From assembly GCF_056712565.1 (NCBI RefSeq), contig NZ_JBWXXM010000004.1: 64,000 nucleotides of DNA. One strand, given 5' to 3'. Origin of the DNA: a plasmid. A program made the translations under genes and the position numbers. The notes under the pieces were generated by a model. That model worked only from the letters and a program-made list of their open reading frames with translations, was not told the origin of the DNA and did no database searches. Position 1 is the stretch's first letter; the number at the start of each line of letters is the position of its first letter. Below are positions 11,492 to 15,754 of this stretch, piece after piece.

Positions 11492-12523
11492 ATGTCCAAT
11501 TTACTGACCGTACACCAAAATTTGCCTGCATTACCGGTCGATGCAACGAGTGATGAGGTTCGCAAGAACCTGATGGACATGTTCAGGGATCGCCAGGCGT
11601 TTTCTGAGCATACCTGGAAAATGCTTCTGTCCGTTTGCCGATCGTGGGCGGCATGGTGCAAGTTGAATAACCGGAAATGGTTTCCCGCAGAACCTGAAGA
11701 TGTTCGCGATTATCTTCTATATCTTCAGGCGCGCGGTCTGGCAGTAAAAACTATCCAGCAACATTTGGGCCAGCTAAACATGCTTCATCGTCGGTCCGGG
11801 CTGCCACGACCAAGTGACAGTAATGCTGTTTCACTGGTCATGCGACGGATCCGAAAAGAAAACGTTGATGCCGGTGAACGTGCAAAACAGGCACTGGCGT
11901 TCGAACGCACTGATTTCGACCAGGTTCGTTCACTCATGGAAAATAGCGATCGCTGCCAGGATATACGTAATCTGGCATTTCTGGGGATTGCTTATAACAC
12001 CCTATTACGTATAGCCGAAATTGCCAGGATCAGGGTTAAAGATATCTCACGTACTGACGGTGGGAGAATGTTAATCCATATTGGCAGAACGAAAACGCTG
12101 GTTAGCACCGCAGGTGTAGAGAAGGCACTTAGCCTGGGGGTAACTAAACTGGTCGAGCGATGGATTTCTGTCTCTGGTGTGGCTGATGATCCGAATAACT
12201 ACTTGTTTTGCCGTGTCAGAAAAAATGGTGTTGCCGCGCCATCTGCCACCAGCCAGCTATCAACTCGCGCCCTGGAAGGGATTTTTGAAGCAACTCATCG
12301 ATTGATTTACGGCGCTAAGGATGACTCTGGTCAGAGATACCTGGCCTGGTCTGGACACAGTGCCCGTGTCGGAGCCGCGCGAGATATGGCCCGCGCCGGA
12401 GTTTCAATACCGGAGATCATGCAAGCTGGTGGCTGGACCAACGTAAATATTGTCATGAACTATATCCGTAACCTGGATAGTGAAACGGGGGCAATGGTGC
12501 GCCTGCTGGAAGATGGCGATTAG
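11492..12523 (+). CDS. cre: Cre tyrosine recombinase
   Basis: 343-aa product MSNLLTVHQNLPALPVDATSDEVRKNLMDMFRDRQAFSEHTWKMLLSVCRSWAAWCKL... with catalytic Tyr context NVNIVMNYIR; adjacent loxP. Confidence 0.97.
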   Translation: MSNLLTVHQNLPALPVDATSDEVRKNLMDMFRDRQAFSEHTWKMLLSVCRSWAAWCKLNNRKWFPAEPEDVRDYLLYLQARGLAVKTIQQHLGQLNMLHRRSGLPRPSDSNAVSLVMRRIRKENVDAGERAKQALAFERTDFDQVRSLMENSDRCQDIRNLAFLGIAYNTLLRIAEIARIRVKDISRTDGGRMLIHIGRTKTLVSTAGVEKALSLGVTKLVERWISVSGVADDPNNYLFCRVRKNGVAAPSATSQLSTRALEGIFEATHRLIYGAKDDSGQRYLAWSGHSARVGAARDMARAGVSIPEIMQAGGWTNVNIVMNYIRNLDSETGAMVRLLEDGD

Positions 12524-12540: not shown

Positions 12541-12557
12541 ATTGCTCTAATTATTTG
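12541..12557 (+). promoter_or_regulatory. C1 operator-like 17-mer downstream of cre
   Basis: attgctctaattatttg, 14/17. Confidence 0.45.
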
Positions 12558-12573
12558 ATATTTATGGTGACGC

Positions 12574-12885
12574 ATGCGGAAGGATTTCAAAATAGACGGA
12601 AAATATGTGGTGCTGTCTGTAAGCTCTCAAATTCAGTCACCATCTGTCATTGTCACCGTAAAGTTGAGCGATAGGATGCCTGATATCGACTCGATATCTG
12701 TTGCGTTCCCCGTTAAAAGCATGCGGAGTGCTGAACATTTTGTGATGAATGCAACGGAGGAGGAAGCGCGGCGCGGGCTTACTAGAGTGATGGTGGAATT
12801 TGGCGAACTCCTGGGTAAGGTAAACAATGCCCTTTCAATCAGTTCAGCAAGATCCAAAGCGTTAACAGCTTCCATGATGAAATAA
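12574..12885 (+). CDS. hypothetical protein (103 aa), c8-position
   Basis: ORF track; operator-like site upstream; position only. Confidence 0.35.
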   Translation: MRKDFKIDGKYVVLSVSSQIQSPSVIVTVKLSDRMPDIDSISVAFPVKSMRSAEHFVMNATEEEARRGLTRVMVEFGELLGKVNNALSISSARSKALTASMMK

Positions 12886-12909
12886 AAAAAGCCTGGCAAG
12901 GAGCCAGGC
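12884..12909 (-). terminator. hairpin with A7/T7 tract, intrinsic-terminator-like for leftward transcripts
   Basis: aaaaaaa gcctggc aagga gccaggc; the U-tract is on the minus-strand side. Confidence 0.35.
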
Positions 12910-13016
12910 TGCACAAAAGAGCGGGTTTGTATTCCGCATCCAATCAATCAAGAAGGAGTATAGCACACAGGTACTGAAGTGAAAAAATGTGATTCGCGAT
13001 TAACAAAATATCTGCC

Positions 13017-13046
13017 ATTGCTCTAATTGATTGCTATAATTAAGCC
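13017..13046 (+). promoter_or_regulatory. overlapping pair of C1 operator-like sites upstream of ref
   Basis: attgctctaattgattg (14/17) overlapping attgctataattaagcc (11/17). Confidence 0.45.
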
Positions 13047-13100
13047 GCAGTTTTTGTCAACTACGAAGACGTTGCCATTACTTAACTCCTTGACATCATT

Positions 13101-13127
13101 GGCGGCCATTAGGCCGCCTTTTTTTTT
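13101..13127 (+). terminator. intrinsic terminator-like hairpin 6 nt upstream of the ref start codon
   Basis: ggcggcc atta ggccgcc followed by T9. Confidence 0.55.
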
Positions 13128-13132
13128 GCCAT

Positions 13133-13693
13133 ATGAAAACAATCGAACAAAAACTTGAACAGCGCCGCGAGTGGCAGAAGGCAGCCAGAGAACGAGCGAT
13201 CGCTCGGCAACGGGAAAAGTTGGCTGACCCCGCCTGGCGAGAATCGCAATATCAGAAAATGCGGGATTCTATCGACCGCCGTATCGCTAAACAGAAAGAG
13301 CGCCCACCAGCCAGCAAAACGCGGAAAAGTGCGGTAAAGATAAAATCTCGTGGCTTGAAGGGGCGAACATCGACAGCGGAGGAACGGAGCATCGCCAATG
13401 CTCTTGGCGCTCTCCCCTGCATTGCCTGCTACATGCATGGAGTAATATCTGAAGAGGTATCTCTGCACCATATCTCCGGTCGTACCGCGCCGGGTTGTCA
13501 CAAAAAGCAATTGCCCCTTTGTAGATGGCACCACCAGCATGCAGCACCGGCTGAAGTAAGAGAAAAATACCCCTGGCTGGTCCCTGTTCATGCCGATGGT
13601 GTGGTTGGAGGCAAGAAAGAATTCACCTTGCTGAACAAGTCAGAGATGGAGTTGCTGGCTGACGCCTATGAGATGGCAAACATCATGCACTAA
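13133..13693 (+). CDS. ref: Ref, HNH-family recombination enhancement endonuclease
   Basis: 186-aa product; HNH-like CYMHGVISEEVSLHHISG...CRWHH; P1 position after cre/c8. Confidence 0.85.
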   Translation: MKTIEQKLEQRREWQKAARERAIARQREKLADPAWRESQYQKMRDSIDRRIAKQKERPPASKTRKSAVKIKSRGLKGRTSTAEERSIANALGALPCIACYMHGVISEEVSLHHISGRTAPGCHKKQLPLCRWHHQHAAPAEVREKYPWLVPVHADGVVGGKKEFTLLNKSEMELLADAYEMANIMH

Positions 13694-14617: not shown

Positions 14618-15754
14618 ATGAAAGCAATGGGGAATGAAGTTTATCAAAGTCAAAAATGCAAGTTGAAATATTCAAAATCTCAAATTGATAGGGCTGCTCA
14701 ATTGATAAGGCACGGGTGTAGTGACGAAGAAAGGCAGCAATCTATTGAAATGATACAAAATTTCCGTGAGCTGCATCTTTATCCATTAATGCTCATGAAA
14801 AATCATTTAGCAAGAGCAGCTGCTAAGGTTGACAAGGACAAAAAGATTCTCGTTGCAAGAAGACTTAAGCGACTTTCTACCATAATAGATAAACTAGAGC
14901 GTCCTAGTCTTGATGGAGGCAGAACTAGCAATGCAATTAAATTAACACGGATGCAGGACGTTGGCGGATGTAGGGCCATTGTCAGAAACTTAGACCAGTT
15001 GATACAGCTAAAGGAACGTCTTTTAAAAAGCAAATCTGTTCATAGGATTGTTAAAGAGTATGATTATCTTACTCCCAAAGACAGCGGCTATAGTGGAATC
15101 CACCTTGCATACAGTTGCTTCGATCAGAAAGAGGATCAATATCCGTGGCGAAAAACAAAGATTGAGATACAGTTAAGAACTCAATTGCAGCATGCTTGGG
15201 CTACCAGCCTTGAAATAATTGATACCCTTGAAGGTATCAAGCTGAAAACTTCAAGTGAAGGGCATCCAGAATGGAGACGATTTTTCTATCTAGCCGGATG
15301 TCTTGTAGCGCACGACGAAAAAGCCTGCACTCTTGATGAGCTAGTTGTATCTCAGTATGAAGGCGAGCTTAAAGAGCTGGAACGGACTTTATCTGTACGG
15401 AGGAAACTAAGCACATACACCATCGCCTTAAATTTAACTTCTGACGCGAATTTGATTAAGAAGTTGCCAAAAAATCATAAGGGGCATTACTTAGTAACAA
15501 TGAGAAATGCAGAAAACAAGCCCAATACAAAAAACAAAAAAATGTTCCTAGTGTCTGTTCGCGCATTTAAAACAAAAGAAGCAGATGAAGCCCTTGAGGC
15601 CTTAAATAAAGACGATTCTAATCCTAATGTATTGATATCTGTTCTCGTTGCTACAGATAACATTAAGTCACTAAAAAAAGCCTACCCCAACTATTTTGGC
15701 TCAACAAACCAGTTTACAAAATTCTTAGATAAGCATCTTCGTAACGAAGGATAG
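14618..15754 (+). CDS. RelA/SpoT-domain nucleotidyltransferase (toxSAS-like), candidate fused toxin-antitoxin of the CapRel type
   Basis: 378-aa product with RLKRLSTIIDKLER, DVGGCRAIV (DxxGxR), DYLTPKDSGYSGIH and EIQLRTQLQHAWA (ExQxRT..HxW) motifs; no neighbouring antitoxin ORF; AT-rich flanks; Cys-poor Lys/Asn-rich C-terminal third. Confidence 0.7.
   Translation: MKAMGNEVYQSQKCKLKYSKSQIDRAAQLIRHGCSDEERQQSIEMIQNFRELHLYPLMLMKNHLARAAAKVDKDKKILVARRLKRLSTIIDKLERPSLDGGRTSNAIKLTRMQDVGGCRAIVRNLDQLIQLKERLLKSKSVHRIVKEYDYLTPKDSGYSGIHLAYSCFDQKEDQYPWRKTKIEIQLRTQLQHAWATSLEIIDTLEGIKLKTSSEGHPEWRRFFYLAGCLVAHDEKACTLDELVVSQYEGELKELERTLSVRRKLSTYTIALNLTSDANLIKKLPKNHKGHYLVTMRNAENKPNTKNKKMFLVSVRAFKTKEADEALEALNKDDSNPNVLISVLVATDNIKSLKKAYPNYFGSTNQFTKFLDKHLRNEG

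Follow-up and report, generated by a model that had tools for sequence, protein, structure and literature searches.

The plasmid-borne stretch of DNA analysed here (64,000 nucleotides, hereafter the window) carries a strong terminator hairpin between operator-like repeats and the start codon of ref, which raises the question of what a terminator does in front of the gene that is to be expressed. The original prediction read the hairpin either as an attenuator, or as a terminator of the transcript arriving from the c8 position that doubles as a translation-initiation structure for ref. The features on which the answer depends are the following.

11492-12523, open reading frame list: cre
12574-12885, open reading frame list: c8
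12884-12909, minus strand: intrinsic terminator after the c8 stop codon (stem-loop 12909-12891, T7 to 12884)
13012-13040, plus strand: promoter P2ref (-35 CTGCCA at 13012-13017, 17-nt spacer, extended -10 TGC-TATAAT at 13032-13040)
13017-13033, plus strand: Oref, a single (monovalent) C1 operator, by consensus match and by P1 and P7 annotation, overlapping the -35 and the spacer of P2ref
13047-13100, plus strand: untranslated leader of the P2ref transcript, including the conserved block GTCAACTACGAAGAC
13072-13099, plus strand: predicted second promoter P1ref (-35 TTGCCA, 16-nt spacer, -10 TGA-CATCAT, the -10 at 13094-13099)
13101-13127, plus strand: intrinsic terminator, the putative attenuator (stem-loop 13101-13118, T9 13119-13127)
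13133-13693, plus strand: ref, encoding the RecA-dependent HNH nuclease Ref, 186 aa

Locus identity and earlier work

The window is P1-like phage with the gene order cre, c8, ref. Between 12860 and 13720 its DNA shares 99.8% identity with phage RCS47 and 96% with P1, and homology and synteny identify the segment as the P1 ref control region (P1 coordinates 1957-2077, between c8 and ref). The product of the open reading frame at 13133-13693 matches Pfam PF16786 (RecA-dependent nuclease Ref, E = 1e-49). The elements Oref, P2ref and P1ref, as given for P1 in the deposited annotation (Lobocka et al. 2004, GenBank AF234172), correspond at 96% identity to window positions 13017-13033, 13012-13040 and 13072-13099, respectively. 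The P7 record likewise gives all three at equivalent places. A comparison with the P1 ref leader had been suggested as a check, and it finds the same operator, promoters, hairpin and cre-c8-ref context in P1, with allelic differences only: T9 in the window versus T8, CGATTAA versus CGATAAA, and a few leader substitutions. CGATAAA is the H-NS site described in the P1 ref 5' region (PMC4713147); its equivalent at 12997-13003 (plus strand) reads CGATTAA in the window, in RCS47 and in some relatives.

A ref control region with a leader terminator is thus real, conserved and already known from phage P1 (1988), and is not new. Windle, Laufer and Hays (1988, J Bacteriol 170:4881) ascribe "attenuator-antiterminator control" to P1 ref, and fragments M23246 (Windle et al. 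1988) and M27041 (Lu et al. 1989) span the region in the P1 record. The curated P1 record annotates no terminator at this position; the element at 13101-13127 is presumably the published attenuator, because it is the only terminator between P2ref and ref. Deletion of the terminator is said to have raised Ref activity in the 1988 work. A 2023 paper that cites Windle et al. 1988 speaks of "no direct experimental evidence" for antitermination in P1 but of "strong indications".

Farther along, downstream of mat, a 378-aa open reading frame at 14618-15754 (plus strand) contains a RelA_SpoT domain (PF04607, E = 3e-12) and takes the place of res/mod in P1 and of lxc in RCS47. It may resemble the CapRel-type fused toxin-antitoxin defence proteins of the P1-like prophage SJ46.

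Anatomy of the leader hairpin

The hairpin at 13101-13118 (GGCGGCC-ATTA-GGCCGCC) consists of seven G-C pairs closed by a 4-nt loop (dG -15.0 kcal/mol). It is followed by T9 (13119-13127), by GCCAT and by the ref ATG at 13133, which leaves 5 nt between the end of the terminator and the start codon. Hairpin, T9 and spacing to the ATG are as originally described; the gap from the second of the two operator-like 17-mers to the stem is 54 nt (13047-13100). The 96-nt leader region folds with a z-score of -3.1 relative to shuffled sequences. Strict intrinsic terminators, defined by a perfect stem of at least six pairs, at least four G-C pairs and T6 or longer, number four on the two strands of the 64 kb; among these the element at 13101-13127 ranks first in stem stability and in T-run length, and no other lies on the plus strand. 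None of 200 dinucleotide-matched simulated sequences contained a stem of seven G-C pairs followed by T8 or longer, which puts the element far outside chance expectation. The element combines a G-C stem-loop with a U-tract, as an intrinsic terminator should, and is unidirectional, with no T-run after the stem on the minus strand.

The T-run at 13119-13127 is polymorphic in close relatives, where it ranges from T7 to T10 (T9 in the window, T8 in P1) and is followed by a spacer GCCAT, GACCAT or ACCTT before ref. Such a homopolymer resembles a slippage-prone tract, and its length could tune termination strength or the spacing to the ATG.

One operator and an extended -10

Two overlapping operator-like 17-mers had been proposed upstream of the leader. 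Both strings are present, ATTGCTCTAATTGATTG at 13017-13033 and ATTGCTATAATTAAGCC at 13030-13046, but only the first is an operator, namely Oref. It matches the C1 consensus ATTGCTCTAATAAATTT at 14 of 17 positions and is the only one of the pair with three mismatches or fewer. With a position weight matrix built from nine other sites in the window it scores 20.7 bits, within the range of those sites, and it has the form of a C1 operator, a 17-bp asymmetric site that overlaps a promoter. Its mean pairwise diversity is 0.034.

The second 17-mer reaches 12/17 and 12.1 bits, and the window contains 16 sites at exactly 12/17 and 16 sites that score at least as high with the matrix. Position 13034 (the C of the second ATTGC, position 5 of this 17-mer) varies among 78 relatives (C in 62, A in 8, T in 8), while TATAAT at 13035-13040 does not vary and the G ahead of it, at 13033, is fixed in 77 of them; a fixed hexamer and G beside a variable 13034 form the conservation pattern of an extended -10, not of an operator. 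JK004-type leaders contain neither a second 17-mer nor a second ATTGCT repeat, and the curated P1 and P7 records give one monovalent operator, Oref, overlapping P2ref. A second C1 operator forming a bivalent pair with Oref is rejected on the match, the matrix score, the variable core position and the monovalent annotation. By its pattern of conservation, the string at 13030-13046 is the extended -10 (TGnTATAAT) of P2ref, whose position predicts a transcript start at about 13047.

The resemblance of the second 17-mer to an operator arises because an operator core and an extended -10 differ by one base, as a site upstream of c8 illustrates. There, at 12541-12557 (plus strand), the window carries the C1-operator-like ATTGCTCTAATTATTTG (14/17; 23.5 bits, above Oref), which ends 16 nt before the c8 ATG. 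The equivalent P1 sequence, ATTGCTATAATTATTTG, is a TATAAT -10, and no operator is annotated there in P1. Between the window (ATTGCTCTAAT) and P1 (ATTGCTATAAT), a single base turns this site from an operator core into an extended (TATAAT) -10.

In two loci (L086 and L087), the end of a mobile element (...TTTCCGTTTTCTGAGACGACCCC), presumably a Tn21-family inverted repeat, is inserted inside Oref, upstream of ref. The insertion takes away the P2ref -35 together with the operator's 5' half, and spares TATAAT, leader and hairpin; ref in these elements may be free of C1 control.

Conservation and covariation of the stem

Two scans of viral contigs yielded 94 loci with the first 21 nt of ref. Three were set aside (L094 and L102, chance anchor matches in an unrelated protein, and L008, which has no intergenic DNA), leaving 91 genuine loci. 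L195, L199 and L007 are transposon-truncated, and L192 is a remnant with no clear start codon. The entry L008 (OQ595196.1, Salmonella phage SJ1) is a 24.5-kb "complete genome" in which coding sequences are joined end to end and ref carries a frameshift; an error of assembly or deposition seems likely, and the record is unfit for regulatory comparisons.

All 91 genuine ref loci, which make up the P1 group, have the hairpin. Mean pairwise diversity is 0.004 in each stem arm, against 0.106 in the loop (variants ATTA, ATCA, TAAA and GAAA) and 0.088 at ref third-codon positions, and amounts to 0.063 in each of the leader segments 13047-13055 and 13071-13089. The stem, about 20 times less variable than the loop or the third-codon positions, is under strong purifying selection.

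The search for related loci returned close relatives only, and diverged homologues were found by tblastn with Ref. Cronobacter phage JK004, whose Ref is 65% identical, and three Salmonella plasmids are laid out alike, with an operator core followed by TGTATAAT, about 60 nt of leader, a hairpin, T7-8, 11-13 nt, and the start codon. Their hairpin, GACGGTC-TTCG/TTAG-GACCGTC, differs from that of the window in two pairs, where both partners have been exchanged (G-C to A-U and C-G to U-A). Pairing is retained in 98.8% of stem cells among 12 distinct sequences, versus 14-70% in slid registers. The compensatory changes probably go back to no more than one or two events in evolution, and taken alone they would fit a DNA palindrome as well, the stem being an inverted repeat. 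Where a change is one-sided it gives a G-U wobble, a pair formed in plus-strand RNA only, and this weakly favours an RNA structure over a DNA palindrome. Taken together, conservation and covariation indicate that the hairpin structure is maintained by selection, and on these evolutionary grounds the element is functional.

The genes upstream of the JK004 and Salmonella cassette are unrelated to c8; thus the segment from operator to ref travels as a unit. Relatives that bear ref and lack the hairpin had been named as evidence that would count against the proposed role. Within the P1 group there are none, and they appear only among more distant types, D6 (Ref 50-56% identical) and Vibrio (47%), in which ref has an ordinary Shine-Dalgarno sequence, no leader terminator and a wholly different upstream region.

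Probable insulation from cre and c8

Transcripts from upstream provide the hairpin with a possible second task. Three promoters of cre and one predicted for c8 are listed in the P1 record, and all of them point toward ref. The hairpin adjoining c8 (12891-12909) has only an upstream A-run on its plus-strand side; lacking a T-run there, it offers no obvious stop for cre and c8 transcripts. The first canonical plus-strand terminator for such read-through is the one at 13101-13127, which probably also protects ref against transcription arriving from upstream. In JK004 and the Salmonella plasmids, the operator begins just past the end of the upstream gene, and no other terminator lies between that gene and the leader. 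The suggestion that the hairpin terminates the transcript from the c8 position is therefore plausible as a second role, the T-run of the c8 hairpin lying on the minus strand only, but it fails as the sole role, because the JK004 and Salmonella cassettes adjoin genes unrelated to c8.

On the minus strand, a consensus scan finds a promoter-like site at 12985-12957 (TTTTCA/TATACT with TG) that faces the terminator at 12909-12884. The pair could produce a minus-strand RNA of about 65 nt with a 3' end overlapping the c8 stop codon.

Search for a switch within the leader RNA

Attenuators of the trp/his leader-peptide, riboswitch and T-box types likewise interpose a terminator, located in the 5' leader, between promoter and start codon. 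The ref leader differs from them in having no maintained leader open reading frame, no antiterminator hairpin and no Rfam match. Folding covered the P2ref transcript (81 nt), a read-through transcript from upstream (213 nt), and P1-type, diverged and ant-class leaders (the last from loci where an antirepressor gene replaces ref). In every context and lineage tested the pair probability of the hairpin is about 1.0, and in none of the lineages folded is there an alternative fold or a mutually exclusive antiterminator hairpin. Apart from the terminator, no conserved secondary structure was found in the leader. A 5' hairpin predicted in the window at 13050-13070 is rejected, with three of its eight pairs broken in diverged leaders. 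Rejected too is an antiterminator pairing of GCCGC (13044-13048) with the 5' arm: this pentamer lies at or before the transcript start, and reads GCGGT, GCCGT or GAGGT in relatives. Indels in the T-run and the spacer among relatives mean that no reading frame is maintained across the leader, which disposes of a leader peptide encoded by the TTG open reading frame at 13027-13158. A permissive search of Rfam 15 gave nothing at the gathering threshold (best scores 15-24 bits versus thresholds of 37-75), and the sub-threshold matches look like generic small-RNA models matching the terminator hairpin.

With no competing fold and no leader peptide, regulated read-through, if there is any, needs a factor acting in trans. 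Parts of the leader are conserved in a way that might suit one. The 15-nt block GTCAACTACGAAGAC (13056-13070, plus strand) is nearly invariant (mean pairwise diversity 0.009), even where its flanks have diverged. In JK004 most of the leader sequence has changed; TGTCAAC, which is part of the block and recurs in the Salmonella leaders, and CTCCYTGAC are the motifs common to P1-type and JK004-type leaders. The block has no second copy on either strand of the window, and neither it nor CTCCYTGAC recurs elsewhere in the window. GTCAACTACGAAGAC and CTCCTTGAC are candidate recognition motifs for a putative antiterminator.

The 1988 question of a P1-encoded antiterminator is thereby narrowed, though not answered: the terminator is under selection and covaries, there is no RNA-intrinsic switch, and the arrangement is common to relatives whose Ref is 65% identical.

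A probable attenuator that also insulates

The observations are probably best accounted for if the hairpin acts both as an attenuator and as an insulator of ref. The C1 repressor bound at Oref (13017-13033) would occlude P2ref, and C1 inactivation would release transcripts starting at about 13047. After an untranslated leader of 54 nt these would meet the terminator at 13101-13127, which ends 5 nt before the ref ATG, and most transcripts, including read-through from cre and c8, would stop there. Ref would be encoded only by the fraction that reads through, so that a host-damaging nuclease would be kept low and tied to lytic growth. Read-through might be constitutive leakage, or might depend on a trans-acting phage factor, the antiterminator hypothesized by Windle et al. 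1988. The control of ref by C1 and the attenuator-antiterminator model are taken from the literature, and C1 binding at Oref from literature and P1 annotation; that termination takes place at the hairpin in vivo, and how large a fraction reads through, we infer from the sequence. The attenuation originally suggested is supported by these data: a conserved, covarying intrinsic terminator lies between a C1-controlled promoter and the ref start, which matches the interpretation published by Windle et al. 1988.

Published expression data fit C1 control. The ref mRNA rises 73-fold after C1 inactivation (Ronayne et al. 2016, PMC4713147), which shows that substantial read-through or bypass of the terminator does occur. 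It peaks at 30 min, later and lower than the mRNAs of ssb, dmt and kilA, which are likewise under C1 control (PMC4713147). A P1vir RNA-seq paper does not discuss ref. Since the RecA-dependent nuclease Ref is harmful to the host and enhances the lethality of ciprofloxacin (PMC4713147), the tightness of ref control is of practical relevance.

The ref leader may be likened to a known system. In phage lambda, PR'-tR' with Q antitermination (6S RNA) combines a constitutive promoter with a strong intrinsic terminator, and expression needs read-through; a terminator follows the promoter within about 100-200 nt, ahead of the controlled genes, much as in the ref leader. P2ref is repressor-controlled, whereas lambda PR' is constitutive, and no Q-like protein, Q-binding element or sigma-dependent pause signal is known in P1.

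Possible bypass by a second promoter

The terminator could also be bypassed, with ref expressed mainly from P1ref and only P2ref and upstream transcripts blocked by the hairpin. P1ref is annotated in P1, scores 9/12 matches with a TG extended -10 in a promoter scan, and includes TTGACATCAT (13090-13099), which is highly conserved in the P1 group. Its expected start at 13105-13108 lies inside or just past the 5' arm, so its transcripts cannot form the terminator, and they fold with only -2.6 to -4.1 kcal/mol and no hairpin. However, the P1ref hexamers are absent from the JK004 and Salmonella leaders, which keep operator, P2ref and terminator; the -10, CATCAT, is weak; and the promoter is only "predicted" in the P1 record. 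As P1ref lies at least 40 bp from Oref, it would leave the C1 dependence and the 73-fold induction of ref unexplained. Expression mainly from P1ref therefore seems unlikely.

It is similarly improbable that the terminator is the cis target of a P1 antiterminator recognizing TGTCAAC and CTCCYTGAC, or else that the unit of some 80 nt which P2ref and the terminator delimit is a C1-controlled small RNA. A functional RNA of this kind, if true, would explain the survival of the unit in plasmids that have lost ref.

The hairpin in the absence of ref

Such loci form a class of plasmids and viral contigs (the ant class, a P1-like plasmid lineage: L003-L005, L035, L042, L062, L063 and L080; AP026456.1, 19837-21516). 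Their homology to the window continues through the hairpin and ends after T6, and the stop codon of a converging antirepressor gene lies two bases past T6, at the common junction TTTTTTAATCA. What has been replaced begins immediately behind the T-run and stops 8 nt short of the ref end. In pMTY1886_NA2, an icd-ant cassette facing the opposite way replaces window positions 13125-13684, and no Ref homologue is found anywhere in the plasmid. Operator, TATAAT and stem are intact in seven of the eight ant-class leaders; the exception, L004, has a 13-bp promoter deletion that removes the -10, and an A-C mismatch in the stem. An inversion between repeated hairpins is rejected as the origin of the junction, because the window contains a single copy of the hairpin sequence and its own ant gene has a different terminator. 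The junction has the structure of a cassette replacement, and the terminator behaves as a module boundary.

These plasmids bear on the suggestion that the hairpin serves translation, in its stronger form that hairpin and U-run are mainly an S1-binding or standby site for a ref ATG that lacks a Shine-Dalgarno sequence. An obvious one is indeed missing: the best anti-Shine-Dalgarno duplex of ref reaches -2.0 kcal/mol and uses an AGG buried in the hairpin stem. U9 immediately precedes the ATG, and the start region is for the most part unpaired (mean unpaired probability 0.70). A/U-rich enhancers that act via ribosomal protein S1 are established, a point for which the rnd paper of Zhang and Deutscher is cited (PMC2176067). 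The weak duplex is not unusual here, however, as cre (-2.5 kcal/mol) and c8 (-2.8) are similarly weak, against -9.3 for mat, and have no such hairpin. The missing Shine-Dalgarno is also not a conserved feature, since the Salmonella relatives have GGAG 7 nt before a GTG start, after the same terminator.

The nearest parallel is the leader of E. coli rnd (RNase D), where, as in ref, a GC hairpin and a U-run stand immediately upstream of the start codon. Zhang and Deutscher reportedly found in 1992 that the terminator-like hairpin and U8 are needed for translation of rnd, which is said to have its own Shine-Dalgarno sequence and a non-terminating element. Unlike the rnd element, that of ref is kept in the absence of its gene and in relatives with a normal Shine-Dalgarno sequence. 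Because hairpin and T-run stay intact in seven of eight ant-class genomes, where a converging gene has replaced ref, and because of the GGAG in Salmonella, the hairpin is not mainly, and not solely, a translation element of ref. A necessary role as a translation-initiation structure finds no support, and the stronger form is very unlikely, although the U-run may help translation as a secondary benefit.

Least probable of all is that the segment from Oref through P2ref and the leader to the terminator is a C1-controlled gene for a functional RNA of about 80 nt, with ref as a read-through passenger: the unit does persist where ref is gone (in one plasmid with no Ref homologue at all), keeps its 15-nt block across diverged leaders and is bracketed by two outward-blocking terminators, but it has no Rfam match above threshold, no conserved structure apart from the terminator and no complementary target found in the window, its leader has largely turned over in JK004, and the lost -10 and mismatched stem of L004 look like decay.
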